Source: an uncultured archaeon (GTDB lineage: Archaea > Thermoproteota > Bathyarchaeia > Bathyarchaeales > Bathycorpusculaceae). Taken from it: a stretch of DNA of 32,213 nt. The translations under genes and the position numbers were made by a program. Shown in pieces: positions 17,837-32,153 of the stretch; positions within the stretch are counted from its first letter, which is position 1, and each line of letters opens with the position of its first letter. The stretch is taken from NCBI GenBank assembly GCA_963782915.1, contig CAWALK010000005.1, forward strand, positions 1-32,213, written 5' to 3'. The notes beneath the pieces were generated by a model that saw only the letters and a list, made by a program, of their open reading frames with translations, searched no databases and was not told the origin of the DNA.

Positions 17837-17855
17837 GGAGAAAAGAAAAAAATTG
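17837..17855 (+). promoter_or_regulatory. Conserved leader/RBS motif GGAGA(A/T)AAGAAAAA(AA)TTG of the surface-protein genes
   Basis: GGAGAAAAGAAAAAAATTG here; GGAGATAAGAAAAATTG at 25059-25075; AGAGGAAAGAAAAAAAATG at 28968-28986; GGAGATAAGAAAAAATTG at 32139-32156. Confidence 0.7.
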
Positions 17856-20408
17856 AAAACTCTAAACAATAAAATCATCGCAAGTCTTATCGCAGTAATT
17901 CTAGTATCCTCAATGGCTATCGCAATCGGAAACCTACCCAATGCTAGCGCACACAACCCTGCTTGGGAAATCCCAACATGGTGCTACATGCAGGTTTCAC
18001 CAAACCCTGTCGGTTTGGGACAACCAGTAGCATTCGTCATTTGGAACACTCGTGTTCCTGACGGAGCGTTAGTAACTAACGACATCAGATGGAAAAACTA
18101 TACCATCGTTCTAACAAAACCTGATAACACAACCGAAGTTCTCGGTGGATTCAACTCTGACCCCACTGGTTCAACATACACACAATACACACCAAACCAA
18201 ATCGGCAATTGGACAGCTAAACTAATCTTCCCAGCACAAGTCCTCACAACAACAGGCACACTCGCAAACGACGTATTCAAAGAAAGCACGTACACAACCA
18301 CCTTCACAGTACAGCAAGACGCAATTTCCACCGTAAGCTACCAATATCCATTACCCACAGAATATTGGACTCGTCCAATCGAGGGTCAAAACAATGATTG
18401 GTTCACACTAGGCTCAAACTGGCTTCGAGGCTCTCAAGTCCAGATCGCACCAAGCGGAACTGGAACTTCTGGCAGAGTTCAACTAGACGGTATTGCACCA
18501 AACAGTGGACACATCATGTGGACAACACCCCTTGAAGACGGCGGAGTAGTCGGTGGAACCAACACCGCTATCGACGGAAACGTCTTCTATTCTGGCACAC
18601 AATACAACCCACGCTTCAATAACGCAATCATTATGGGCGGAAGAATCTACTATTCTGAACCAAAGGAAAACACTGGCACAGGCGGCGACGTTGTATGCCG
18701 TGATCTACGAACTGGCGAAGAACTTTGGAGACGCAGCGACATTTCAATGTTCTCATTCGGTATGTACTACGCAATGGAATACTATAACCAGCACGGAGTT
18801 ATTCCACCAGGAGTACTATTCACAACATCAGGCAGCACAATAATCGCATACAACCCCCTCAACGGTCACGAGATGGGCTGGAACCTAACCAACGTTCCAA
18901 CCGGATCAATCGCTAACGAAGCAGTCGGTCCATCAGGCGAAATCCTAAGATACCAACTACAAAGCTACGGCACAGGCGCAAACCAAATCTACAAAATACA
19001 ACAATGGAACCTATCCAGAGCATACATCATCAACACTAACCCAACAAACCCAGCAACACTACAAGCAAACGCATCAGCATTCTATGACTTTAACCAAACA
19101 GTAACATACCAAGGCCAACCATTCAAAGTAACAGGCGCAAGCGCACAAGCAGTCATCTACAATGACCTATTACTATTCAGAAACGGCAGCCTACAAACAC
19201 AAACAAGCGGCAACGCACAACCATACACATACTTCGCAGTAGACATCAACGCATCACACACAACACTAGGCAACGTCATATGGATGAAAAACTATGACCA
19301 ACCAACCGGCAACCTAACCCTGCTCTCAACAGCAGCAGGCGACGGCGTTTGGACAATGATGTACAAAGAAACATACCAATGGATCGGATTCGACATGCAC
19401 ACCGGAGCAAAACTCTGGGACCACGCAGCAATGGACTTCTCTGAACTAGACTACAACCCATATGGCTACTACAGCTCAACCACCGGCAACATGCTAACAC
19501 ACGCAATCTACCAGGGCAAACTATACTCAACAGGCTACAGCGGAATGCTCTTCTGCTACGACCTCTACACTGGAAAACTCCTCTGGAAATATGAAGCTCC
19601 AGCAAACATGGAAGTTTTCAAGTACTACACACTACACATCGGCGCAGTCGCAGACGGAAAAGTCTACCTCGGCTCACACGAACACTCTGCAAGCACACCA
19701 CTACTCAAAGGCAACCTAGTAAGATGCGTCAACGCAACAGACGGAACTGAAATTTGGACTCTACCCGGATGGGCAGCAGCATACAGTCCAGTAGTTGCAG
19801 ACGGCTTCCTAGCATACGCCAACCTATACGACAACCAAGTTTACGTCGTCGGTAAAGGTCCAAGCGAAACCACAGTCGAAATCGAAGACAACGTTATCCA
19901 AAGCGGCAGCAGTGTAATGATCACAGGTACAGTAACAGACATCGCTTCAGGCACCACACAGACTGAACAAGCAGCACGTTTCCCCAACGGCGTCCCAGCA
20001 GTTTCAGATGCAAGCATGGGCCAATACATGGCATACGTCTACGAACAAAAACCGCTCCCAACAAACGTAACCGGTGTCCCAGTGACACTAAGCGTTGTTG
20101 ACGCAAACGGCAACTACAGAACCATCGGACAAACCACCACTAACGACGGATTCTTCAGCTTAAGCTGGAAACCAGACGTTGAAGGTGACTTCCAAGTCTA
20201 CGCTTCATTCGGCGGATCTGAATCATACTGGCCATCACATGCAATAACAGCATTCACCGTTGACTCTGCAGCAGCAACACCAGCACCAACACAAACACCA
20301 GCAACACCAATATCTGAGCAATACTTCGTCCCAGCAATCGCAGGTCTACTCGTTGCAATCATCGTGGTCGGTCTATTGACCATCATGATGCTCAAGAAGC
20401 ACCCATAA
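17853..20408 (+). CDS. Secreted, C-terminally anchored PQQ-like beta-propeller surface protein (paralogue 1)
   Basis: Signal peptide; Ig-like SPNPVGLGQ domain; repeats DLRTGEELW, DMHTGAKLW, DLYTGKLLW, NATDGTEIW; RFPNGVPAVSD; P/T linker; TM helix and KKHP. TTG start at 17853 follows the shared leader motif (ORF track 17835). Confidence 0.88.
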   Translation: MKTLNNKIIASLIAVILVSSMAIAIGNLPNASAHNPAWEIPTWCYMQVSPNPVGLGQPVAFVIWNTRVPDGALVTNDIRWKNYTIVLTKPDNTTEVLGGFNSDPTGSTYTQYTPNQIGNWTAKLIFPAQVLTTTGTLANDVFKESTYTTTFTVQQDAISTVSYQYPLPTEYWTRPIEGQNNDWFTLGSNWLRGSQVQIAPSGTGTSGRVQLDGIAPNSGHIMWTTPLEDGGVVGGTNTAIDGNVFYSGTQYNPRFNNAIIMGGRIYYSEPKENTGTGGDVVCRDLRTGEELWRRSDISMFSFGMYYAMEYYNQHGVIPPGVLFTTSGSTIIAYNPLNGHEMGWNLTNVPTGSIANEAVGPSGEILRYQLQSYGTGANQIYKIQQWNLSRAYIINTNPTNPATLQANASAFYDFNQTVTYQGQPFKVTGASAQAVIYNDLLLFRNGSLQTQTSGNAQPYTYFAVDINASHTTLGNVIWMKNYDQPTGNLTLLSTAAGDGVWTMMYKETYQWIGFDMHTGAKLWDHAAMDFSELDYNPYGYYSSTTGNMLTHAIYQGKLYSTGYSGMLFCYDLYTGKLLWKYEAPANMEVFKYYTLHIGAVADGKVYLGSHEHSASTPLLKGNLVRCVNATDGTEIWTLPGWAAAYSPVVADGFLAYANLYDNQVYVVGKGPSETTVEIEDNVIQSGSSVMITGTVTDIASGTTQTEQAARFPNGVPAVSDASMGQYMAYVYEQKPLPTNVTGVPVTLSVVDANGNYRTIGQTTTNDGFFSLSWKPDVEGDFQVYASFGGSESYWPSHAITAFTVDSAAATPAPTQTPATPISEQYFVPAIAGLLVAIIVVGLLTIMMLKKHP

Positions 20409-20429: not shown

Positions 20430-20455
20430 CTTTCCCACCCTTTTTTAGTTTAAAT
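20430..20455 (+). terminator. Conserved pyrimidine/oligo-T tract after beta-propeller gene 1 (putative terminator or processing site)
   Basis: CTTTCCCACCCTTTTTTAGTTTAAAT; near-identical tracts at 27676-27701 and 31609-31635. Confidence 0.6.
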
Positions 20456-20463
20456 GGTAAGTC

Positions 20464-20579
20464 AACTGGGGCTGAGAAGGCGACTGGTTACGATTTACGA
20501 TGTTTGCAATCATCGTGGATCTAATTTGCAGTTGTGTTCTACTCTCCTTAATGGTCCAGTCGCCTCAGCAAACCCAGTT
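20464..20579 (+). ncRNA. Putative structured ncRNA, copy A of a 4-copy family
   Basis: AACTGGG/CCCAGTT; GCTG/CAGC with an AAA bulge; perfect AGGCGACTGG (20478-87)/CCAGTCGCCT (20556-65); inner ACGATG/CATCGT hairpin with TTTGCAAT loop; TTTGCA...CTCTCCTTAA segment. Confidence 0.7.
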
Positions 20580-20644
20580 AACAGTGCCAAATTTTAGTTA
20601 TGCCAAGCGACGATTTATTTAATTAGCTTTAGATTTGAAGCCGT

Positions 20645-21601
20645 TTAGAAGGTTGAGAGGAATTCTCTACGGAGTGGCCATACAGGAAATAATCTGGAAA
20701 CAGATATCTCCCAATTAGTTAGGTTATTTATTGCCAGAATCTGCTCCTTGAAACCCACAAATTGGTCAATATCTCTAATCATCAAGCTCGCTATGCAATC
20801 AAATTTGCCGCTGGTTTTATGAATAAAGTTAATGTCAGGAGATTGAGAAATGGCTTCTACACTCCTGCTGAGGTTATCTTGAGAGAATGATAATTTGAAG
20901 AGAGCAAAAGCCCTGTACCCAATTTTTAAGGGGTTGATTTGAATTACTGGTTTTATGTCTTTGTTGCGCTTGAGTTTTCCGTATCTTCTAATAACGGTAT
21001 CTGTTGAGATGCCGAGTTCTTTACTGATATTGCAAAATGGGGTTCGCCCATTTGTTACCAATTTTTCAATTATGAATTTGTCAATATCATCAATTTCGAT
21101 ACGATTGATTTCTTTGTCTGTGCTTTGATCATTTTCTCCAGCAACTGCGTTAGCTAGTACAGATAGATTATCTGGGTTGTTACACATTCCTAGCCAAACT
21201 TGAGCTTCTACCTCTAGGACGTAGGGTAATTGCTTGATGGATTGTTTAGTTTGCTCTATCTCCTGCATTGTTTTTACGGTGAATATCGCGCTAAGGTTTG
21301 GATTAACTCCTTCAGGATAAACTTCAATCACGTTGGCTGCATCGTTGAGAAGCTTGATAACATAATCTGCCTTGTGTAGTTGAGTGTAAATGTTGAAGGT
21401 TGCGACAAAATTGCTGTTGTAACAGGCGCAACTGTTTTGGATGGTTGCTCCAACGATTATGCCTTGTTTTTTCATTTGTTTGTATCTGTTAGCGATGACT
21501 TCTTTGGATACGTTGCATTGTTGGGCGATGGCTGTGAAGCTTTTCCGTCCATCTTTTAGCAGTTCTTTTAGGATTGTTGCGTTAATGCGGTCGATCTTCA
21601 T
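20645..21601 (-). CDS. Lrp/AsnC family regulator with two tandem HTH+RAM units
   Basis: IDRINATILKELLKDGRKSFTAIA...VS...R and IDDIDKFIIEKLVTNGRTPF..ISKELGISTDTVIRR; C-terminal TSGKFD. Confidence 0.88.
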   Translation of the reverse strand: MKIDRINATILKELLKDGRKSFTAIAQQCNVSKEVIANRYKQMKKQGIIVGATIQNSCACYNSNFVATFNIYTQLHKADYVIKLLNDAANVIEVYPEGVNPNLSAIFTVKTMQEIEQTKQSIKQLPYVLEVEAQVWLGMCNNPDNLSVLANAVAGENDQSTDKEINRIEIDDIDKFIIEKLVTNGRTPFCNISKELGISTDTVIRRYGKLKRNKDIKPVIQINPLKIGYRAFALFKLSFSQDNLSRSVEAISQSPDINFIHKTSGKFDCIASLMIRDIDQFVGFKEQILAINNLTNWEISVSRLFPVWPLRREFLSTF

Positions 21602-21787
21602 GGATGGTTGCTTCCGATTGTTTGCTTTCTGTTAATGATTGGTTTGACAACGTCTTAAATTACTTTCGGAAATAATGAAAATTCGCACCTGAATTCTTTA
21701 ATTCTTTCCATTTTTATAGTATGTCAGTCGAAAAAACTATATAATAAATTAAAGAAAAATATGGCAAAACGATAGATTAAGATAAAA

Positions 21788-21893
21788 CGGGCTGAATAGG
21801 CGCTGGTAAGTATCACGATATTGCCTGCCCGGTGTTTCGTGGAGAGCTTTTGCATTTAGCTCTTACTCCTTATCCAGAGCCTCAGCAAACCAC
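21788..21893 (+). ncRNA. Putative structured ncRNA, copy D (stand-alone)
   Basis: GGGCTGAATAGGCGCTGG ... CACGATATTG-CCTGCC-CGGTGTTTCGTG ... TTTTGCATTTAGCTCTTACTCCTTAT CCAGAGCCTCAGCAAACC, with the same order of elements as copy A. Confidence 0.65.
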
Positions 21894-22064
21894 AAAAACG
21901 TAGTTACTATTAACCGGCCGCTGATACCACATTATCAATCCTTAGCGGATGCACATGCCTCTGAGGATAGCTTGGTTTTGCTTAGGTTTTACGAATTACC
22001 CGCACAGAGATGCTTAGACAGCAATTAAAATATACCAAGTAAACATTGACTTGCTGGGTAAGCT

Positions 22065-22257
22065 ATGAAGCGAAAGAGCCTGCGAAAATTCAGCATAAAA
22101 AAGAACCTAACTGCATTTTTAGGTTTGTCCCTTGTTTCGCTTGTTGTATTCGGGTTCATAGCACTCAACGGGCAAGATTCAAGAGGCGGTGGCTGCGTTT
22201 TCTGGTAGTCAACCCCAACTCGACGGTATCACCTTTATGATTATGAAAGTGACTTAG
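22065..22257 (+). pseudogene. Internally deleted membrane sensor-PP2C (SpoIIE/RsbU-type) phosphatase remnant
   Basis: ATG 22065 gives MKRKSLRKFSIKKNLTAFLGLSLVSLVVFGFIALNG (N-terminal TM helix). It is followed in another frame by 22177-22257 IQEAVAAFSGSQPQLDGITFMIMKVT*, matching the PP2C C-terminal F.G..PQ.DDIT...K pattern. It lies directly upstream of the RsbW/RsbV-like genes. Confidence 0.72.
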
Positions 22258-22266
22258 AAGGCTTGA

Positions 22267-22704
22267 ATGATGAAAGACAGCGATGGATGGTTTGAACTTA
22301 AAATAGAAAGTGACCTAAAGAACCTAGAAATTGTAGCGGATTTCATAACTAAAACCATGCGTGAATCAGGCGCACAAAATGAAAAAGACATATTCGATGT
22401 CCAATTAGCCGTAGACGAAGCCTTAACAAACATAATCGAACACGCTTACGCCGGCATTAAAGGCGGCAAAATCACAGTACAATGCCGACTATCAGAATCA
22501 AAAAAAGAGTTCATAGTTAAACTTAAAGACTCAGGCAAACCCTTTGATCCCCAAACTGTCGCTTCTCCAGACACCGACGCCGAATTAGAGGAACGCAAAG
22601 TCGGCGGATTGGGAATTTACTTCATGAAACAGCTTATGCAAACCGTTAAATACGCCATCAACGACAAGGAAAACGAATTAACGATGGCTAAGATTCTTAG
22701 CTGA
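22267..22704 (+). CDS. RsbW/SpoIIAB-like anti-sigma-factor Ser/Thr kinase (HATPase_c_2)
   Basis: QLAVDEALTNIIEHAY (N box), DSGKPFDP (G1), RKVGGLGIYFMKQLM (G2), NELTM. Confidence 0.9.
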   Translation: MMKDSDGWFELKIESDLKNLEIVADFITKTMRESGAQNEKDIFDVQLAVDEALTNIIEHAYAGIKGGKITVQCRLSESKKEFIVKLKDSGKPFDPQTVASPDTDAELEERKVGGLGIYFMKQLMQTVKYAINDKENELTMAKILS

Positions 22705-22714
22705 GGGTTTAACG

Positions 22715-23050
22715 ATGAGTGTTGAAGTTAAAACTGTGGGCGACGTAAAAATTATTTGTATCATGAAACGATTTGATGCTTATACTGCAAACCAGGTTGA
22801 GGCAGAATTAACAAGACTTATTGCGGAAGGTTCTCGCAAGATAGTGTGCGATTTCTCACAAACAGAGTACCTTGCCAGTGCTGGACTTCGCGTGCTCATA
22901 ACTGCCACCAGAAGCCTCCAGAAAGTAGGCGGCAAAATTGTGCTCTGCTCAGTCAAGCCCTATGTGCTCGAAGTCTTCGAAATATCTGGCTTAAAGAAGA
23001 TCTTCAAAATATTCGATTCCACCGACGCCGCCCTACAAGAACTAAAATAA
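22715..23050 (+). CDS. STAS-domain anti-anti-sigma factor (RsbV/SpoIIAA-like)
   Basis: RFDAYTA, DFSQTEYLASAGLRVL (phosphoacceptor Ser kept), VFEISGL. Confidence 0.9.
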   Translation: MSVEVKTVGDVKIICIMKRFDAYTANQVEAELTRLIAEGSRKIVCDFSQTEYLASAGLRVLITATRSLQKVGGKIVLCSVKPYVLEVFEISGLKKIFKIFDSTDAALQELK

Positions 23051-23053
23051 ACG

Positions 23054-24787
23054 GTGCCTAAGATGAAATTAACCAGTTCCGATCTTCTCTTAAAATATCT
23101 TGAGAACGAAGGCGTCGAATACATATTCGGTGTCCCCGGACTCAGCTTAATCCCCCTTTTCGAGGCATGCAATCGAAACCCAAAGATCAAGCCGATCCTC
23201 GCCAAACACGAGGAAGGAGCCGCATTCATGGCAGACGGCTATGCCCGAGTCAAGGGAACCTTAGGCGTATGCTTTGCTACCTCAGGTCCAGGCGCAACTA
23301 ACCTCATAACTGGAGTTGCAACCTCCTATCTCGATAACATCCCAGTTATGGTATTAACTGGTCAAGTTGCAACTTCGTTATCAGGCGGCGGCGCTTTTCA
23401 GGATTCCACCAAAAACGGTGTCGACTCGGTAGCCATGTTTGACCCAATTACAAAGTACAGCACTATGATTCTTTCTAAGTATAGAGCTCCTGAAGAGATC
23501 CGTGAAGCCCTCAGAATGGCATTAACGGGCAAAAAAGGCCCCGTACATTTGAGTATGCCCAAAGACGTGATGGCTGAAGAGATAGAATCCGAACTACCAA
23601 CATCTACCTCGTATAGGCCGCCTGCTGAGTACTTTGATCGCCGCATGGTGATTGAAGCCGCAGAGCAACTCGTAAACGCACAAAACCCTGTAATCTTGGT
23701 GGGCAGCGGCGCAGTGGCATCTGGGGCTTGTGAAGAAATCCGTGATTTAGCTGAAACTCTGCGCATCCCAGTTGCGACTTCACCCAAAGCAAAAGGAGCC
23801 TTCCCAGAAGATCATCCACTATCCTTGGGTGTGCTTGGTTTCTGCGGTTCTCCTGTTGCGGAAAACTGTCTAACTTCCGGTCAAACCGATGTGCTATTAG
23901 TTATTGGGCCTAGCCTAAACCAGATGACAACTATGTCATGGGACCCACGCTTAGCGCCAACCAAATGTTTAATCCATATAAACATTGACGCGACCGAAAT
24001 CGGCAGAAACTACAAAGTCGATATTCCATTAATTGGCGATGCCCGAACAATTATTAACGAAATCTCTTTCCGCATTATGAAATACATTGTGGATGAGCAA
24101 AGCCCAAAATGTGACGGAGCGGCAAGGGTTGGAGCTATACGACAGAAGGTGGGGATATGCGTATCACCCGAAAAGATGGAATCTAATAATATTCCAGTTT
24201 TGCCTCAACGCATGGTTAAGGAATTAGAACGCGCCTTGCCAGAAGACGCCATTCTATTCGTTGACACTGGAAATCCCATGTGCTGGGCTATTCACCATAT
24301 GCAAGTCCGCAGACCAGACTCTTTCATCTGTCCCTTCGGCCTTTTAACCATGGGTTACTCTACTGCCGCAGCTATAGGCGGAAAATTAGCTGCACCAAAC
24401 CGTCCAGTTGTATCTCTAGTTGGGGATGGTTGCTTCTTGATGAATGGCATGGAAGTAGCTACAGCCGTCAGCTATGATATTCCAGTCGTCTGGATAGTGC
24501 AGAATAATGCAAAACTTGGTTTGGTGCATGAGTTCCAGAGGTTGAATTTTGGCGAAAAAACTGTTGTTACCCGATTCAAGCCGATTGACGCTGCTAAAGT
24601 GGCTGAAGGATTAGGTGCCAAAGGGTACCATATCGAGCGGCCAGGTGAACTTGAAGCATTACTGCCTAAAGTTATTGAAGAGAATAAGCCGGCTGTTATC
24701 GACTGTAGAATTGCTGATGAGGTACCGCCGCTTGCTCCATTTGTTCAGGGCCTCAAGAACTTCTCCAGCCGCCTAGAAAATATGTAA
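23054..24787 (+). CDS. Thiamine pyrophosphate-dependent enzyme, acetolactate synthase large-subunit-like
   Basis: GVEYIFGVPG, KHEEGAAFMADGYAR, TSGPGATN, AFQD, GPVHLSMPKD, TPP motif GDGCFLMNGME...VQNN. Confidence 0.9.
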   Translation: MPKMKLTSSDLLLKYLENEGVEYIFGVPGLSLIPLFEACNRNPKIKPILAKHEEGAAFMADGYARVKGTLGVCFATSGPGATNLITGVATSYLDNIPVMVLTGQVATSLSGGGAFQDSTKNGVDSVAMFDPITKYSTMILSKYRAPEEIREALRMALTGKKGPVHLSMPKDVMAEEIESELPTSTSYRPPAEYFDRRMVIEAAEQLVNAQNPVILVGSGAVASGACEEIRDLAETLRIPVATSPKAKGAFPEDHPLSLGVLGFCGSPVAENCLTSGQTDVLLVIGPSLNQMTTMSWDPRLAPTKCLIHINIDATEIGRNYKVDIPLIGDARTIINEISFRIMKYIVDEQSPKCDGAARVGAIRQKVGICVSPEKMESNNIPVLPQRMVKELERALPEDAILFVDTGNPMCWAIHHMQVRRPDSFICPFGLLTMGYSTAAAIGGKLAAPNRPVVSLVGDGCFLMNGMEVATAVSYDIPVVWIVQNNAKLGLVHEFQRLNFGEKTVVTRFKPIDAAKVAEGLGAKGYHIERPGELEALLPKVIEENKPAVIDCRIADEVPPLAPFVQGLKNFSSRLENM

Positions 24788-24830
24788 GCCCTTCCGACTT
24801 CCTGGGGCTATTTTTTTTATTTCTCTATTT
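24786..24830 (+). terminator. Hairpin plus oligo-T terminator after the TPP enzyme gene
   Basis: AGCCC...GGGCT stem followed by ATTTTTTTTATTTCTC. Confidence 0.5.
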
Positions 24831-25072
24831 TGAGTTGAAGGGATCAGAGAAACTTCTGGAGAGAATTGATGATTTCAAAATAGTATCGTCACATTGAAAT
24901 TAGAATAGTTGGCGAAGTTCCTAGGTATTGTTCTAATCATTTAGTTTTGTAAAGTAACCGCCAGTTTTTGGTAATGGATGTTTTGTAGTGCTGTGGCTGT
25001 TGGTAACAAACGCATTGTTTTAAATATCAACCGCTGAAAAGTAAGGAAGCACAAACAAGGAGATAAGAAAAA

Positions 25073-27656
25073 TTGAATAAAAAAATCTTTGCAATTTTGC
25101 TTTTTTTGGCTTTTGCATTAGGAACATTTGCAGCTATACCAAATGAAGTAAACGTACAAGCAGCAACAGCAGCAACACAAAAGACCTATTCAATTACTGA
25201 TGCAATCCCCGACAAAATAGGCATTGGCGAAACAACACTTCTCAAAACCGGTATTACACAAGCACTAAACGCAGCCGAAGATGGTTGGAGCGGCCTTACA
25301 ATCACAGTCACAAAACCAGACGGTACAAACACAACATTGGGACCGTTCAAGTCAGACTCGACTGGTTCAACCTTCACCCAATACACGCCAGACGCAGTAG
25401 GCACCTACACTATAACAAGCAACTTCCCACAACAAGAAATGCCAGTAAACACAGACGACGCAGAAAGAGGCATAACTATTCCTAAGGGAACCATCATGCT
25501 TGCAAGCAGTGCATCATGCACATTAGTCGTAACAAATGAGCCTTCACCAGTGTATCCTGGTCATTCCCTTCCAACTGAATACTGGAGTCGCCCAATCGAC
25601 CCACAGCTTAGAGAATGGTTCAGCATCTCAGGTAACTGGGTTCAACGACCAGACAATTCATTTGCACTCTTCAATGACGATGCACCAGACACAGCACACG
25701 TACTATGGGCTCAAGACTTAACAACCGGCGGTATGTCAGGCGGTCTCACAGGCCCTGGTCAAGTCACTGCAGGAATGAACTCAGGCGACGCATACGAAGG
25801 CAAATTCTCCAACTCAGTCATACTCAACGGAAAACTTTTCTACAATACTGGACCCGCACCAGGCTTTTACGGTTCACTTGGCTCATGTAACGTCAAAGCA
25901 GTTGACCTACACACAGGCGAGGAACTCTGGGTAAAAAATGACACCTTCCTATCCTTTGGTCAAGAATTCTACTGGAACAGCTACAACGTAGACGGTGTAT
26001 ACAGTTATCTTTGGACAACATCGACCACTTATGATCCACCATTCTTCATCCCAAAAACCACTTGGACTGCATACGACCCCTTTGATGCTTCTTGGTGCTT
26101 CACTTTCGAGAATGTTCCCTCAGGAACACAAATCTATGGCCCAAGCGGCGAAATCCTGATCTATCAAATTGACCTCGTCAACAACCGACTGATGCTTTGG
26201 AACTCAACCCTCTGCGGTCTACAAAATGCGGCGCCAGATTCACCTGATCTCGGTAGTTGGGCAAGCAACGTCATGATGAGAACATTCGATGCGTCAAATC
26301 CAAAAAGCTACTCTTGGAATGTCTCTATCCCAGCTGGCTTGAAACAGAAGCACAACATTCGGGGCATCAATCGCGAAGATCTACGATGACAGATATGCCT
26401 CATTATTCTTCAACCAAACAATGGTAAGAGTATGGGCAATCAACACTGCAGGCTTAACAAAAACATCCACATCAGCTTCAATGCTATTCGATCAAACCTG
26501 GGCTGCACCAACCGAATGGCTTGCAGGCTCTAACACTCTACATTACACAGGCGCAACAAATTATGTATCCGACAGTACCTACGGCGACGGTGTCATAGCA
26601 GTATGGGATAAAGAACTAAGAACCCACTATGGCTTCAGCATTGTAACTGGTAAATACCTCTGGGCAACTGGCTCTGAAATCTATTCCGATGCTTACGGAT
26701 GGGGTAATGCAGAACACACTTGGTACTTTGCTTATGGCAAATTGTACTCAGTGGGTGTCGGCGGTATCCTCTATGCTTACGACCTCGCAAACGGAGGCAC
26801 AGCATGGACATACAATCTAACTGGCCGCCCAACTGGAGAACCCGTCACAGGCAACAACTGGTGGGGCTGGATTGACCTAATTTCTGATGGCAAAATCTAC
26901 ATCGGCACACTCGAGCACTCAGCAGAGAACCCACTACCAAGAGGCGCACCCTACATCGCAGTTAACGCAACAGACGGCAGTGAAATCTTCCGTGTCAACG
27001 GTATGTTCCGTGAAACCAGATGGGGCGGTAACGGCATCATCGCTGATAGCATCATCGCAACCATGGACACATACGACCAGCGCGTATATGCAATCGGCAA
27101 AGGCCCAACAAAACTAACTATTGACGTACCAGGTATCGGCGTAGCATCAGGACAAAGCATCATGATACGAGGCACATTAACCGACACATCACCAGCCACC
27201 TCGACTTACGCATTAACCTCAAGATTCCCCAACGGTGTCCCTGCAGTATCTGACGACAGCCAAAGCCAATGGATGCTCTATGTATACAAACAATTCGAAC
27301 GCCCAACAAACGCAACTGGTGTTCCACTAACTATCTCAGTCATTGACGCTAACGGCAACTATAGAACTATCGGAGAAACAAAAAGTGACTCAAACGGAGA
27401 CTACAGCTTCAGTTGGCTCCCAGACATCGCAGGCCAATACAGTGTCTATGTAACCTTCGCTGGATCAAAAGCATACTATCCATCAACCGCTGGAAGCGCT
27501 TTCGTTGTTGACCAAGCACCAGACGCAACCGCAGCGCCAACACAGACACCACAAACAATGACTGATCAATACTTCATACCCGCAGTAGTGGCCATAATCC
27601 TCGCAATCGCAATAGGCTTTGTAGTAACAATTCTGGTCCTAAGGAAACGACCGTAA
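25073..27656 (+). pseudogene. PQQ-like beta-propeller surface protein (paralogue 2) split by a single +1 frameshift (ORFs 25073-26389 and 26421-27656)
   Basis: The two ORFs are the N- and C-terminal halves of the paralogue architecture. Removing one base at ttgAAAcag (26342-26344) gives PAGL-NRSTTFGASIAKIYDDR...MVRVW and an 860-aa protein. It may be a true lesion or an assembly error. Confidence 0.8.
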
Positions 27657-27716
27657 AATAAGAAAAATAAACAATCTTTCCCTCCCTTTTTTAGTTTTAA
27701 TTTGACCCAAGAATTC

Positions 27717-27830
27717 AACTGAGGTTGAGTAAGGCTCTTGAATTGCACGGCGATGGTTGCAGTCATCGTAGTTACATCTGAATTCTCTTACGCCTTAAGG
27801 AAAAGTGACAAAAGCCATAGCGGCCTTGGA
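27717..27830 (+). ncRNA. Putative structured ncRNA, copy B (most diverged)
   Basis: After the same pyrimidine tract: AACTGAGGTTGAGTAAGGCT..., GCGATGG-TTGCAG-TCATCGT hairpin (27750-27769), TTACAT...CGCCTTAA. GGCTCTTG/CAAAAGCC and CTGAGGTTG/CGGCCTTGG pairing are possible with G-U. Confidence 0.55.
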
Positions 27831-27864
27831 AGAAGAACCCTGAAGCTAACCATAGCTTGAGGCT

Positions 27865-28143
27865 TTATTTATAGCTCATACCCATGCGTTTCATAAAAGA
27901 TAGAACAGCTTCATATTCGTCTATGTATTGTCTGCCTTTCTCAGTAAGCTTAAGCGACGTCTCGTTTTCAATTAGACCTAACTCCTTTAGGTCAGAAATG
28001 TATTTTTTTAAACGGGTAAATGGAACATTAATTTTCAACTGGATGTGCGTAATAATTATTTTTTCATTAGCGGATTCGGCACGGATTATTAATAGAAGAT
28101 CCCCATAAATTTTCATTTTATCTCTTCTTTGGATCTTCTTCAT
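27865..28143 (-). CDS. Winged helix-turn-helix regulator (HTH_45-like), paralogue of 16560-16838
   Basis: RRDKMKIYGDLL, ITHIQLKINVPFTRL, ELGLI, LTEKG, F(M/F)(K/R)RMG shared tail. Confidence 0.85.
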   Translation of the reverse strand: MKKIQRRDKMKIYGDLLLIIRAESANEKIIITHIQLKINVPFTRLKKYISDLKELGLIENETSLKLTEKGRQYIDEYEAVLSFMKRMGMSYK

Positions 28144-28145
28144 GG

Positions 28146-28841
28146 TTAGTGCCTTTTTTTCTTGATTAGGTAAAAAGTTTTAGAGGCTGATATGAGAAAA
28201 ACGGCCAGACTCGTTAAACGGAGCGCTAAAGATACCCAAAATGCAAAAACGCCTGAATAGAAATTCAATATTAAATATGATAACTGGCTTAGTCCAAGGA
28301 GTGCATAACCACTCAGTACCCATATAGATATTGGGTCAGGCTCTTTTGCTTGCTCCCTGAAGCAGTGAATGAAAATGTATGTAAGGCAAACAAGGTTTAA
28401 GATTCGAATAAAACTACTTAGAGTTAGGTAACTGCGTATTGGTATTTGTGGGGCAATAAAATTTAAAAGAAGTAGGGCCGCTAAGGACACAAATAGTCCG
28501 CTAAATATAATATCCCAAATGTAACGCGTATTTTTGGTTGGTTTTTTTGAGAAATAGTAGGCAACTGCAAGGAATAAAAATGCAAACGCCCTAAAAAGAA
28601 GTTGAATCCACTTTATGCCACTTTCATAGAAATTAGGTTGAGCATATGCTATTGCCGAAAGAGCGTAAGAGGCGCCGAGAAAACCGAATCCGAGCGGTAA
28701 ACCGATATAGCGACCTTCACGAGTAACTATATAGGGTTTAATCATAAACCACAGTAAAACAGCGCAAGCGACCGCTGATATAATTTCTACTGCGATACGT
28801 AGTATTATGTCAGACATAGGTTGGTTCAGCCAGAGGTACAA
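28146..28841 (-). CDS. 7-TM membrane protein (putative sensor), paralogue of 15863-16582
   Basis: KPY...REGRYIGLPLGFGFLGASY, NLVCLTYI, SQLSYL, RLTSLAVF. Its stop lies 2 bp from the wHTH start; alternative ATG at 28817. Confidence 0.8.
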   Translation of the reverse strand: MYLWLNQPMSDIILRIAVEIISAVACAVLLWFMIKPYIVTREGRYIGLPLGFGFLGASYALSAIAYAQPNFYESGIKWIQLLFRAFAFLFLAVAYYFSKKPTKNTRYIWDIIFSGLFVSLAALLLLNFIAPQIPIRSYLTLSSFIRILNLVCLTYIFIHCFREQAKEPDPISIWVLSGYALLGLSQLSYLILNFYSGVFAFWVSLALRLTSLAVFLISASKTFYLIKKKRH

Positions 28842-28955
28842 CTTTTAGTATATTCATCTTTCTTGCTTTTTAGTGCTATCTTATTGAAAAATATGTATTT
28901 ACGTTATACGAACCACAGGTCCATGAGTCTTATTAATTGAAACTGCAAAATATGG

Positions 28956-28971
28956 CTCTATAAATATAGAG
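28956..28971. promoter_or_regulatory. Inverted repeat CTCTATA-AA-TATAGAG overlapping a TATA-like box and the RBS of paralogue 3
   Basis: Perfect 7-bp inverted repeat in the divergent intergenic region between the 7TM-wHTH operon and the surface-protein gene. Confidence 0.35.
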
Positions 28972-28983
28972 GAAAGAAAAAAA

Positions 28984-31584
28984 ATGAAAATTAAATTATC
29001 GAATAAAACTATCAGCGCTTTAATTGCTTTGACTCTAATACTGACAATTGCTATCACAATGTTTACTTTACCCTCTGCCAACTCAGCAACGGTACCTACA
29101 CTTACAAGGAAGGCAAATGTCTACATTGCAGCTACCCCTAATCCAGTAGGAACCGGTCAGGAAACACTGCTTCATATTGGTATGAAAGATGAGCTTCAAG
29201 CAGAGTACCTGGGCTGGAAGGGCTTAAGCATAACGATTCAAAAACCAGACGGTACCACAGAGACACTCACAGATATCAATACTGATTCGACTGGTGGAAC
29301 GGGCAGAATATACGTACCTTCTGTGGCAGGTAACTACACTATACAGGCGCATTTCCCCGCACAATGGCAGAACGTTACAGTTAACGGTGGTGCCAATATA
29401 TTCTATGACGCGGCTGTCAGCCCGAATGTAACACTTACCGTAACCGAAGACCCAATACCCACATATCCAGGGCATTCACTCCCAACCGAATACTGGTCTC
29501 GACCAATTGATTCACAGCTTAGAGAATGGTATGAGGTTACTGGAAACTGGTTAACAACATACCCCGCAAATCGATATGCCAAATACAACAGTGAGGCACC
29601 AGAAAGCGCACACATTCTATGGGCTAACCAACTAGCAGAAGGCGGACTCAGCGACGGTTTGATTGGCTCTGACAATTCAACTCACTCCTACGAGGACGGT
29701 AGCGCATACGAAAACAAGTTCTACAACTCAGTAATACTAAGTGGCGTACTCTACTACAACCTGTATGAAAGTCGTGGCGATCCATATGCTGAACAAATAG
29801 TCGTTGCTGTAGATTTGAAGACTGGTGAAGAGCTCTGGTCTAAACCTCTTATTGGCAAAGTAGCTCGCTCAGGAACCACCGCCGCAGAGACAGTTGCATC
29901 TGCAAATATAGTCATCGATGGAGTAAGCGACCAATTCCCAGATGGCATTGGCAGAAGACTAGCGTTTGGTCAACTCTTCTATTGGAACTCATACAACTAC
30001 GACGGCTCTTACGCATTACTATGGACAACCAGTGGCACAACTTGGATGGCATTTGACGCTTACACTGGACGATGGATATACACCATTATGAACGTACCCA
30101 CCGGCACCACAACCTACGGTATAAACGGTGAACTCTTAAGAGTTGACGTTCAGAACACGAAAGGCTACATAGCTATGTGGAACTCGAGTAATCTAGTATC
30201 AGCCGCAGGAAGCTGGAACCCACATGGAAACGTCTACAACGCAACAGGAACGGGGGCAGGACCTAAGCGTGCATGGGAATGGAACGTAACGATACCAAAG
30301 TTAGCGGGAAGTGTTATGCATATTCTTGAAGATAGAGTGCTTGGTTCAAACTATGGTAGTGACAGATATATTCAGCAAGCGATTGTGCGACAGAATGCTG
30401 ATATTAACTTCTGGGGAATAAGCACAGACCCAGAAAACCCGGGAAAACTGCTGTTTAACACAACATGGACACCGCCAAAGGATGAGACTATATATTCAAA
30501 GGCTGCAAGTCTAGATGCTGGCTTTTTCTTAGTTACTACTAAAGAATCAGCTTCACACTATGCTTTCGATATTGATACTGGTAAACTGCTTTGGGGCCCA
30601 ACAGTACCGCAAAACTATCTCGACTCATTTAGTATTCTACTCTACGGTGCGCCCAAGATCGTCTACGGCAATGTCTACTGCCAAGCTATGAGCGGAATAT
30701 TGTATTGCTACGATGGTGCGACAGGCGAAACTCTATGGACCTATGAACCTACTGACCCCTACAACGAGGTACTATGGTCAGACCAGTGGACATCAACTAT
30801 AATGTTCATCGCTGACGGAAAAATTTACAGTGGCAACTATGAGCACTCCCCAGAGACTCCTAGAGCACGCGGCGCGACATTCACATGCATCAATGCCTCA
30901 AACGGTGGTCTCATATGGAAGCAAGATGGCATATGGCCAACAAGTTACACCCCTGACGCAATGATTGGAGACAGCACAATGGTGCTAATGGACGCATACG
31001 AGAATACCATATACGCTTATGGCAAAGGACCAAGCGCCACTGAAGTCACCGCACCGAGTGTAAGCGTCACTGCAGGCGACAATATAGTGATATCCGGCAG
31101 CGTTACGGACATTTCACCGGGAACCGATGAATATGCATTGACGGCGAGATTCCCCAACGGCGTTCCAGCAGTCTCTGATGAGAGCCAAAGCGCATGGATG
31201 CTCTATGTATACAAACAATTCGAATGCCCAACAAACACTACTGGCGTTGAAGTAATCTTAACTGCTTTGGACCCTAATGGTAACTATATCACCCTCGGCT
31301 CGACTACAACGGATGCAAGCGGCACCTTCGGATACAACTGGGCAACACCTGACATTCCAGGCAAGTACACGATCACTGCCATATTCGCTGGCTCCTCGGC
31401 ATACTATTCTTCAAATGCACAAACCTACGCTATCATAGAGTCTGCACCTGAACCCACCGCTGAACCAACAAAAACACCAACGGCAATCTCAGAAACCTAC
31501 TTTGTACCTGCAATTGTGGGTCTATTCATTGCAATAGTAGTAGGTTTCGTGTTGATGCTATTAGTACTCAGGAAACGACCATAA
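28984..31584 (+). CDS. Secreted, C-terminally anchored PQQ-like beta-propeller surface protein (paralogue 3)
   Basis: Signal peptide; TPNPVGTGQ; LPTEYWSRPID; DLKTGEELW, DIDTGKLLW, DGATGETLW; RFPNGVPAVSD; P/T linker; TM helix and RKRP. Confidence 0.9.
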   Translation: MKIKLSNKTISALIALTLILTIAITMFTLPSANSATVPTLTRKANVYIAATPNPVGTGQETLLHIGMKDELQAEYLGWKGLSITIQKPDGTTETLTDINTDSTGGTGRIYVPSVAGNYTIQAHFPAQWQNVTVNGGANIFYDAAVSPNVTLTVTEDPIPTYPGHSLPTEYWSRPIDSQLREWYEVTGNWLTTYPANRYAKYNSEAPESAHILWANQLAEGGLSDGLIGSDNSTHSYEDGSAYENKFYNSVILSGVLYYNLYESRGDPYAEQIVVAVDLKTGEELWSKPLIGKVARSGTTAAETVASANIVIDGVSDQFPDGIGRRLAFGQLFYWNSYNYDGSYALLWTTSGTTWMAFDAYTGRWIYTIMNVPTGTTTYGINGELLRVDVQNTKGYIAMWNSSNLVSAAGSWNPHGNVYNATGTGAGPKRAWEWNVTIPKLAGSVMHILEDRVLGSNYGSDRYIQQAIVRQNADINFWGISTDPENPGKLLFNTTWTPPKDETIYSKAASLDAGFFLVTTKESASHYAFDIDTGKLLWGPTVPQNYLDSFSILLYGAPKIVYGNVYCQAMSGILYCYDGATGETLWTYEPTDPYNEVLWSDQWTSTIMFIADGKIYSGNYEHSPETPRARGATFTCINASNGGLIWKQDGIWPTSYTPDAMIGDSTMVLMDAYENTIYAYGKGPSATEVTAPSVSVTAGDNIVISGSVTDISPGTDEYALTARFPNGVPAVSDESQSAWMLYVYKQFECPTNTTGVEVILTALDPNGNYITLGSTTTDASGTFGYNWATPDIPGKYTITAIFAGSSAYYSSNAQTYAIIESAPEPTAEPTKTPTAISETYFVPAIVGLFIAIVVGFVLMLLVLRKRP

Positions 31585-31644
31585 GGTGAAAACGAAATGA
31601 AAAACACCCTTTCCCTTCCTTTTTTTAGTTTCAATTTATGTTTC

Positions 31645-31762
31645 AGGCTGGGGCTGAGTGGGCTTCTGGACTACTGTTTTACGCGGTGTTTGCGATCATC
31701 GTGTTTGCATTTTTCTTCTCTCCTTAAGAATAAATGTCTAGGCGCCTCAGTAAACCCAGTTT
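31645..31762 (+). ncRNA. Putative structured ncRNA, copy C
   Basis: AGGCTGGG/CCCAGTTT; GCTGAG/CTCAGT with an AAA bulge; CTGGAC/GTCTAG; ACGCGGTG/CATCGTGT hairpin with TTTGCGAT loop; TTTGCATTTTTCTTCTCTCCTTAA; followed by a T-rich tract at 31766-31788. Confidence 0.7.
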
Positions 31763-31798
31763 AAACCTTTTTTCGTTTTCTTTTTCTTGAAATAATTA

Positions 31799-31868
31799 GG
31801 CGCCGGGGTTAAGGACTCGAACCCCTGTGGGCATGAAGCCTCTGGCTGTCTTGCCATTTCTGGCTCTT
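31799..31868 (-). pseudogene. Degenerate 3' part of a long-variable-arm tRNA (Ser/Leu-like)
   Basis: Reverse complement: GCCAG (3' anticodon stem) A GGC-TTCAT-GCC (variable arm) CACA GGGG-TTCGAGT-CCTT (T arm) AA CCCCGGC G CC. No matching 5' acceptor strand GCCGGGG or D arm is present upstream. Confidence 0.6.
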
Positions 31869-32153
31869 GCCCTTACGATAGGTTTTTTTTAATGTGGGTT
31901 TTTTGCATGCGCTACTTTGGTACTTTATGGCTTAATTTTAGCAACGAGAATTGTAAAAGGCAAAACTGATTTAGCAAAGAATGGTTTGTGCCTTATCTTT
32001 CGTTTATGAATAAAAATAAGAAAAAATGCTATATTCGTAATCGTTATTCATAATTATACTTAATTTTATGGCAAGTTTGAAGCATATTTGCAAAACCATA
32101 AATACGCAAAGGAAACAAAAAAAGAAGCCATAGACATAGGAGATAAGAAAAAA

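Follow-up and report, generated by a model that had tools for sequence, protein, structure and literature searches.

What is made from the spaces behind the surface-protein genes of Bathyarchaeia is the question raised by a 32,213-nt stretch of DNA from an uncultured archaeon of the family Bathycorpusculaceae (contig CAWALK010000005.1 of assembly GCA_963782915.1; the whole stretch is referred to below as the window). An earlier note, made from these letters alone, had pointed to four similar intergenic elements, here designated copies A, D, B and C in their order along the window, and had read them as a structured RNA of the forward (+) strand linked to genes for beta-propeller surface proteins. 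Here we present a computational analysis of these elements and of their relatives in other genomes. The element family is real, under selection and undescribed, and it very probably represents a functional structured RNA of the + strand. Two features that are absent from the earlier note were observed: the base of the fold has the geometry of a bulge-helix-bulge (BHB), and the interior carries a pyrimidine-rich segment complementary to the start regions of surface-protein genes. In the best reading of these features, which our model of processing makes about an even bet, the element would be excised as a regulatory RNA of ~93 nt, possibly circular.

Structure, spread and conservation of the element family

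A covariance model, R1, built from 14 copies, located the four elements where they had been claimed to lie, every one on the + strand. Their alignment (mean column identity 64%) makes the shared order of parts visible: an outer stem and a second stem, then an inner hairpin whose loop contains TGC, the segment TT(G/A)CA and finally CCTTA. The family had been taken to consist of four copies, which is not the case. R1 gave 21 matches in this genome; since three of these are allelic duplicates on contig C22, which holds a second haplotype of the window, the element occupies ~18 places in the genome, and hundreds of copies were found in relatives, for a total of ~600. Of 36 other genomes of the genus, 28 had matches (at most 24 in one genome), as did 40 of 151 genomes drawn from the order, by family 21/35 in f1, 17/35 in f7, 1/25 in f6 and 0/34 in f11. 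When 151 genomes were drawn from the class and a threshold of E <= 1e-6 was applied, matches were confined to f1 (10/20) and f7 (4/6), and none was found in the 124 genomes of 28 other families. Copies within this genome are 64-87% alike. The element is 101-138 nt long, and its lengths modulo 3 are distributed 43/37/32 over 112 distinct copies, a lack of preference which indicates that it is not coding; no conserved reading frame was found in the elements.

The + strand folds of three window copies are more stable than those of shuffled sequences (A, -49.5 kcal/mol, z -4.74; C, z -3.35; D, z -2.78), and that of copy B is no better than its shuffles (z +0.12). Covariation, which the earlier note had named as support for a structured RNA, was obtained by pair counts against shuffled and slid controls. 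In the closing stems, 95.3% of cells are paired over 108 distinct copies, and 141 cells have changed on both sides, compared with 35.4 +- 4.6 in shuffles and 9-27 with the partner slid. Adding two inner hairpins, P2 and P3, in a second model gave 89.9% paired cells and 315 double changes vs 83.3 when shuffled. P2 is 81.7% paired, with changes on both sides at all six of its pairs (112 distinct copies), P3, with the loop UUUGCAUU, is 78.4% paired, and both hairpins have many pair types per position. RNAalifold, run on MAFFT alignments, recovered the closing stems only. The argument for the + strand from G-U compatible differences also holds in the larger set: over 28 pairs in the 112 distinct copies, G-U/U-G combinations number 175 vs 91 for A-C/C-A, in an alignment that was fitted to the + strand model. 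Taken together with the lack of an Rfam family and the recurrent gene linkage described below, the covariation supports a + strand RNA under structural selection, as had been proposed.

Searches for a described family were negative. The window has no Rfam match at the gathering score, and around A, D, B and C a search of Rfam 15 at E <= 10 returned chance-level matches only, the best with 20.1 bits vs a gathering score of 74. A literature search covering Bathyarchaeia small RNAs and bulge-helix-bulge motifs in Bathyarchaeia or in archaeal untranslated regions (UTRs) found no published account of such an element. Two known classes were tried and rejected: UGAUGA occurs in 1/112 copies and a C box followed by a D box (RUGAUGA, CUGA) in 0/112, which does not fit a box C/D guide RNA, and ACA in the last 12 nt is found in 9/112 copies, which does not fit an H/ACA guide RNA. 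No tandem G.A pairs of a K-turn were seen by eye.

Comparison of haplotypes and of species shows how closely the element is kept. The window is a second haplotype, ~98% identical, of C22:179478-207732. Between the two haplotypes copies A, C and D have no difference in 337 nt, compared with 19 in 1137 in the surrounding spacers and 542 in 28341 in the whole alignment; the element is under purifying selection. Copy D lies 180 nt upstream of, and divergent from, a gene for a double helix-turn-helix (HTH) regulator, and in three other species (genomes G005, G014 and G015) an element keeps this place and orientation, 165-190 nt upstream of the closest regulator orthologues (58-60% identity), where the flanks of D and its counterparts do not align. 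The unpaired segment of copy A is likewise kept across species. The C22 haplotype lacks the part of the window from 27324 to 31131, and copy B with it. At the joint the alignment blocks share 117 nt, suggesting that recombination between the 3' parts of the two paralogous surface genes removed copy B and fused these genes in C22.

Bulge-helix-bulge geometry at the base of the fold

Where the fold closes, a central 4-bp helix (GCUG/CAGC) stands between an outer helix and a long inner one, and each strand carries a 3-nt bulge; this is the canonical BHB geometry. The outer helix reads GGG/CCC and is longer in many copies, reaching 9 bp, with covariation, in genus g16; the inner helix has at least 8 pairs, and the 3' bulge, AAA, sits between CAGC and the outer helix. 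The register of the 4-bp central helix is fixed because the first inner pair covaries (AU 70, GC 21, GU 11). Among the 108 distinct copies the central helix has four standard pairs in 106, the 5' bulge is 3 nt long in all 108 (AGA 48, AGU 37, AAA 17, AAU 4, others 2) and the 3' bulge in 107, being AAA in 102. Flanking helices of the type denoted hBHBh' are also general, with two outer pairs in 101/108 and three inner pairs in 98/108. All of these criteria are jointly met in 87/108 copies, A, C and D included. Copy B is degenerate: its first inner pair is broken, which leaves an enlarged internal loop, and it fails the geometry count.

The motif also has a handedness. A BHB is defined, in the portion of PMC4090602 drawn on here, as a 4-bp helix flanked by two 3-nt bulges, and the first two bases of the anticodon lie in the central helix, so that each bulge must stand 3' of the helix on its own strand. 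Both bulges of the present element lie 3' of the central helix on the + strand, and the minus strand gives the mirror image. In the canonical intron at position 37/38 of a tRNA, the cut falls after the second base of each bulge. Applied to the 108 copies, this rule predicts an excised piece with a median length of 93 nt (range 75-112). The genome encodes the proteins that such processing would call for: two splicing-endonuclease subunit genes (PF01974, 97.2 bits and 80.9 bits; 189 and 184 amino acids of open frame; regions C3:14491-14736 and C3:35259-35510) and one RtcB gene (591.7 bits; C24:160224-161537), with all matches above the curated cut-off. A search of this genome for element-less, "spliced" DNA forms gave 10 short-motif matches, none in the usual context. 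On this modelling, we consider the chances that the element is processed by the endonuclease to be evenly balanced.

Surface-protein genes and complementarity to their start regions

The linkage to surface-protein genes seen in the window recurs throughout the family. Defining linkage as a position no more than 170 nt after a gene with a membrane-anchor tail, 82/112 distinct copies lie behind an anchored surface-protein gene on the same strand, at a median of 55.5 nt to the model start, and the inverted arrangement was seen once in the 112. In the window, copies A, B and C begin 56-61 nt past stops at 20408, 27656 and 31584, and the tract CTTTCCC..CCTTTTTT(T)AGTTTnAAT precedes each of the three; both points agree with what had been reported. 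The earlier attribution to beta-propeller genes stands for A and C, whose upstream genes match PQQ_2, and fails for B, which has no Pfam propeller match upstream. What the gene before B has in common with the two PQQ_2 genes is the C-terminal anchor only, composed of a Pro/Thr-rich linker, YF(V/I)P, a membrane helix and LRKRP. The product of the gene before A has a signal-peptide-like N-terminus in addition to its Pro/Thr-rich linker, membrane helix and basic tail. The linkage is not obligatory, as 10/84 tail-anchored open reading frames (ORFs) in a crude list carry an element, and by eye about a dozen of ~30 ORFs with the Pro/Thr ... LRKRP tail do so.

The second feature concerns the unpaired interior. 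In this genus the unpaired segments UUUGCAUUU and CUUUUCUCCU(A), when reverse-complemented, read as GGAG, an A-rich spacer, AUG and CAAA, and several anchored surface-protein genes begin with exactly this pattern. Elements of genus g16 carry UUUUUCAUUUUUUCAUUCCUUC, and at the starts of the genes that precede them are GAAGG-type motifs, A6 and AUGAAAAAA. Thus the element sequences differ between the two genera (GCAU / CUCC vs UCAU / UUCCUUC), and the start regions differ too. Complementarity was measured as mean duplex energy (kcal/mol) vs 40 shuffles. For g16, 14 elements paired with 12 surface start regions gave -19.02 vs -10.30 +- 0.35 for shuffles, compared with -11.63 vs -11.46 for the same number of elements with 16 other start regions. 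For 13 other genomes of this genus, 40 elements gave -14.57 vs -9.38 +- 0.20 with 13 surface start regions and -11.90 vs -10.73 with 30 others. Controls with reversed sequences agree with this result. In this genome, copies C, H, G, E and L are enriched for surface-start complementarity, the segment of copy C reaching -14.39 with the start regions of anchored surface genes vs -10.65 with those of all genes. A cruder test with 45 nt of this genome's elements gave no enrichment (-14.27 vs -14.16), and the narrower segment is enriched. That start regions are controlled by such pairing is a suggestion we make tentatively, from the complementarity of the sequences.

In the g16 loci (L057, L058, L085-L106) the part complementary to the start codon is paired internally with a start-region look-alike, AAAAUGAAAAA, and the anti-GAAGG part is single-stranded. 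Perhaps this look-alike serves as an internal mimic by which the segment is masked.

The features of the window are collected in the table below. Additional observations concern the neighbours of the elements. The surface protein before B is spread over two frames, which could be a broken gene or two genes. Paralogues of the double-HTH regulator recur beside elements, with 11 R1 matches in 28 regulator-centred loci (L110-L138). At E <= 1e-40 the regulator was found in 0/8 genomes of the genus without the element vs 23/28 with it, and as related genomes are not independent, this co-occurrence is only a lead. Just downstream of D, at 22267-23050, are genes for an RsbW-like kinase (HATPase_c_2) and a STAS-domain protein, a partner-switching pair of bacterial type. 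A search for related loci with the propeller protein as query gave no match. A neighbouring enzyme gene has its closest public relatives in Bathyarchaeia metagenome-assembled genomes, and its best match is a Bathy-6 isolate (92% identity); expansions of genes for extracellular PQQ-domain proteins in Bathy-6 are in print (PMC11697101, drawn on in part).

Close to copy C, at window 31785-31885 (-), is a stretch resembling the 3' half of a tRNA, with a second copy at C22:211121-211195. It has a T-arm with TTCGAGT and the 3' strand of an acceptor stem, with CCA in the second copy, and the two copies are 87% alike over 75 nt. No matching 5' half is adjacent, and neither ARAGORN nor Rfam called a tRNA in either copy. 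Possible origins are a tRNA gene that is split or holds an intron, and the remnant of an integration site.

Table 1. Positions of the elements, their parts and the neighbouring genes in the window
Feature	Positions	Strand	Remarks
R1 span, copy A	20461-20581	+	99.8 bits
R1 span, copy D	21781-21898	+	73 bits
R1 span, copy B	27714-27832	+	54.9 bits
R1 span, copy C	31643-31763	+	98.5 bits
Copy A, whole element	20464..20579	+	R1; passes every BHB criterion
Copy A, outer helix	20464-20470 / 20573-20579	+	read off the sequence
Copy A, central 4-bp helix	20471-20474 / 20566-20569	+	
Copy A, bulges	5' 20475-20477; 3' 20570-20572	+	
Copy A, inner helix	20478-20487 / 20556-20565	+	
Copy A, predicted excised piece	20477..20571	+	95 nt; from the geometry and the published motif definition (PMC4090602, in part)
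Copy A, predicted cuts	20476/20477 and 20571/20572	+	between these positions, if the splicing endonuclease cuts after the second bulge base
Copy A, hairpin P2	20492..20521	+	ACGAU..AUCGU type, UGC in loop; minimum-free-energy fold
Copy A, conserved unpaired segment	20523..20552	+	UUUGCA.. then CUCUCCUUAA; "anti-start" segment of the family
Copy D, whole element	21789..21891	+	stand-alone, no surface gene upstream
Copy D, outer pairs	21789-21790 / 21890-21891	+	
Copy D, central helix	21791-21794 / 21883-21886	+	
Copy D, bulges	21795-21797 and 21887-21889	+	
Copy D, inner helix	21798-21806 / 21874-21882	+	
Copy D, predicted excised piece	21797-21888	+	92 nt
Copy B, whole element	27717..27830	+	degenerate; central helix GUUG/UAGC with two G-U pairs
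Copy C, whole element	31645..31762	+	
Copy C, outer helix	31645-31652 / 31755-31762	+	
Copy C, central helix	31653-31656 / 31748-31751	+	one G-U pair
Copy C, bulges	31657-31659 and 31752-31754	+	
Copy C, inner helix	from 31660 / to 31747	+	
Copy C, predicted excised piece	31659-31753	+	95 nt
C-rich/oligo-T tract and A/T-rich box	20430-20455 (A), 27676-27702 (B), 31609-31635 (C)	+	sequence
Surface-protein gene before A	17853..20408	+	PQQ_2 beta-propeller, PF13360 1.8e-12
Double-HTH AsnC/Lrp-type regulator gene	20645..21601	-	Pfam; between A (convergent) and D (divergent)
Frame preceding the gene before B	25073-26389	+	signal-peptide-like start, no Pfam match
Gene before B	26421..27656	+	weak Ig-like matches only; same C-terminal anchor
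Surface-protein gene before C	28984..31584	+	PQQ_2 propeller, PF13360 8.8e-14; same anchor

Processing model, alternatives and known systems

The excised-RNA reading can be laid out as a series of steps, each of them, from transcription through cleavage, circularisation and pairing in vivo to the final effect, inferred from the model. A source transcript would cross the module, either by read-through from the surface gene or from a promoter beside the oligo-T tract. The tRNA-splicing endonuclease would cut in both bulges, after which RtcB would join the inner piece of ~93 nt, probably into a circle, and the flanking RNA may be rejoined. The released RNA would then expose its pyrimidine-rich segment (UUUGCAUUU ... 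CUUUUCUCCU in this genus), which would pair with the start regions of surface mRNAs, from the GGAG-type motif across the A-rich spacer to the start codon and the bases just after it, and this pairing would damp or coordinate translation of the surface proteins. Such a model explains both the exact geometry and the near-absolute orientation to the upstream gene, as well as the failure to find a fixed promoter or terminator and the persistence of stand-alone copies. A more elaborate version, in which a BHB intron family particular to this lineage colonised the 3' regions of an expanding set of genes for extracellular PQQ-propeller and other anchored surface proteins, and transcription of one such gene yields a stable circular RNA antisense to the starts of its paralogues, such that the one expressed silences the others, we regard as unlikely.

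A number of findings weigh against this reading or one of its parts. Regarding transcription, a T run of at least five lies within 60 nt upstream of 94/112 copies, a likely terminator (T5 or longer) between gene and element; the tract between the stop and copy A is, from its sequence, likely the terminator of the upstream gene, and it possibly overlaps a promoter for the element. No consistent T run follows the element (T5 49/112 vs A5 36/112), and no promoter was found at a fixed distance from the elements. Regarding processing, 21/108 copies, B included, fail one geometric criterion, and the central helix and 3' bulge hardly vary in sequence; endonuclease recognition needs no such invariance, so these parts may serve another partner. 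Regarding the structural evidence, the alignments used for pair counts were fitted to the models, which favours pairing, though the slid controls use the same alignments, and a hand-made model, R2, mis-pairs one base of the central helix (columns 16-206, AU 86, other 25).

Further points of this kind bear on the proposed pairing. Complementarity is uneven, being not enriched in copies A, D and I of this genome, and the most striking single duplex, a 25-of-26 match between copy H and gene C12:199036 with an energy of -30.2, falls within the range of shuffles (minima -26.9 +- 2.7, lowest -34.7). Because the elements are paralogues of one another, as are the start regions, the comparison given above is in effect one of two lineages. 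Also, by eye, GGAG lies 10-14 nt and TATA-like boxes 17-25 nt before the start codons of surface genes (e.g. 28954-28995); given this spacing and the nearness of the boxes, the leader may be very short, in which case the "anti-GGAG" part may be without an RNA target. As an observation in its own right, 10-14 nt from GGAG to the start is long for Shine-Dalgarno spacing.

Among the alternatives, the one that survives best is a linear RNA, either the product of a trans-acting small RNA gene or a structure of the 3' UTR, in which the likeness to a BHB is incidental and the base stem simply closes the fold or binds another protein. The pyrimidine-rich segment might still be the active part of such an RNA, or the RNA might simply serve to protect the upstream mRNA or to terminate it. 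All of the evidence for a structured + strand RNA fits it, the conservation of the central helix and AAA bulge exceeds what endonuclease recognition demands, and copy D must have its own transcription. Furthermore, in most other genomes (L035-L062) the elements are preceded, ~30 nt upstream, by an A/T-rich box of the CTTAAAA type and a purine-rich stretch, UGGAGAARAGAAUAA, which resembles the leader of a surface gene. Between this purine-rich flank and the pyrimidine segment of the element itself there is complementarity (-9.81 vs -7.38 +- 0.22; 86 copies), which is absent from this genome's 12 copies (-5.56 vs -6.06). What a linear RNA accounts for poorly is the exact 3-4-3 geometry with flanking helices in 87/108 copies, which is hard to obtain by chance and which covariation at the pair that fixes the register has preserved in two families; neither is there a consistent terminator past the element. 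We regard the linear RNA as possible but doubtful.

A miniature mobile DNA element, like a miniature inverted-repeat transposable element (MITE) or a repetitive extragenic palindrome (REP), whose stems would be terminal inverted repeats spread by transposition, is quite improbable. The many copies, up to 24 in a genome, and the imperfect inverted repeats at their ends would suit it, as would the minus strand of copy A, which folds better than the + strand (z -6.50), and the copies that stand alone from surface genes (D, I, M, N, O). The orientation is one-sided, however, with 82 same-strand copies vs 1 inverted in 112, the copies have diverged, and their stems change by compensating substitutions with an excess of G-U. 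Copy D holds an orthologous place in four species. A search of this genome for paired ends at kilobase spacing, allowing 0-1 mismatches, found none and hence no parent element, and no target-site duplication was seen by eye in the four window copies. The MITE that the earlier note had named as a refuting outcome was thus not seen: the copies are diverged, of one orientation and without a long partner element.

Least probable is a functional minus strand that mimics the start region of a surface gene, as an antisense promoter or start site or as the code for a tiny peptide, for although the reverse complement of the conserved segment reads as a full start region (A/T-rich box, GGAG, A-rich spacer, ATG), the frames from that ATG run for 4-48 codons and shift between copies whose lengths are not multiples of three, an RNA starting there would lose one strand of the best-conserved stem, and the G-U bias and BHB topology fit the + strand only.

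If the excised-RNA reading is true, the tRNA-splicing endonuclease would be a general maturase for regulatory RNAs, and it would be linked to how Bathy-6 genomes control the large expansions of extracellular PQQ proteins that characterise them. Those proteins have been proposed to act on lignin (PMC11697101, in part). In the more elaborate version described above, the system would amount to a mutual-exclusion or dosage circuit, post-transcriptional in nature and built from the tRNA-splicing pathway, and to the first family of circular antisense regulators in archaea.

Several known systems share one or another of these properties. HVO_1309 of Haloferax volcanii has a 46-nt BHB intron in its 5' UTR which is cut by the endonuclease and was recovered as circular RNA, and in the portion of PMC7714728 drawn on here, this intron and that of cbf5 in Crenarchaeota are the only BHB introns reported in archaeal protein-gene transcripts, with no role given for either excised piece. 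Like them, the present element puts a BHB motif, known here from sequence geometry, into the transcript of a protein gene. Unlike them, since they are single-copy and lie in the 5' UTR or the coding region, it occurs in 5-24 copies per genome, behind genes, and has a conserved multi-hairpin interior; its processing is a prediction. The intron of tRNA-Trp carries a box C/D small RNA (PMC4090602, in part) and is thus also a BHB-bounded small RNA of similar size, but its host is a tRNA and its cargo a C/D guide, whereas the present elements have no C box followed by a D box and their excision is predicted. The processing stems of archaeal 16S and 23S rRNA, which contain a BHB, yield circular precursors (PMC7714728, in part). 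As in the present case, a long stem containing a BHB is built from inverted repeats, there releasing the enclosed RNA as a circle; the cargo is an rRNA of 1.6-3 kb there and an RNA of ~93 nt here.

Bacterial small RNAs derived from 3' UTRs arise through release by RNase E or from internal promoters. Like the RNA proposed here, they are regulatory RNAs that come from the 3' end of an mRNA, but they are neither archaeal nor bounded by a BHB. Finally, the streptococcal csRNAs are multi-copy, have an unpaired region complementary to the Shine-Dalgarno sequence and start codon, and have been proposed to block the initiation of translation, an effect that has been shown for some of their targets (PMC3091779, in part). 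They are bacterial, are transcribed from CiaR promoters and consist of two hairpins and a terminator, with neither a BHB nor linkage to the 3' ends of their targets, so that the likeness is one of mechanism only, with no sequence relationship.

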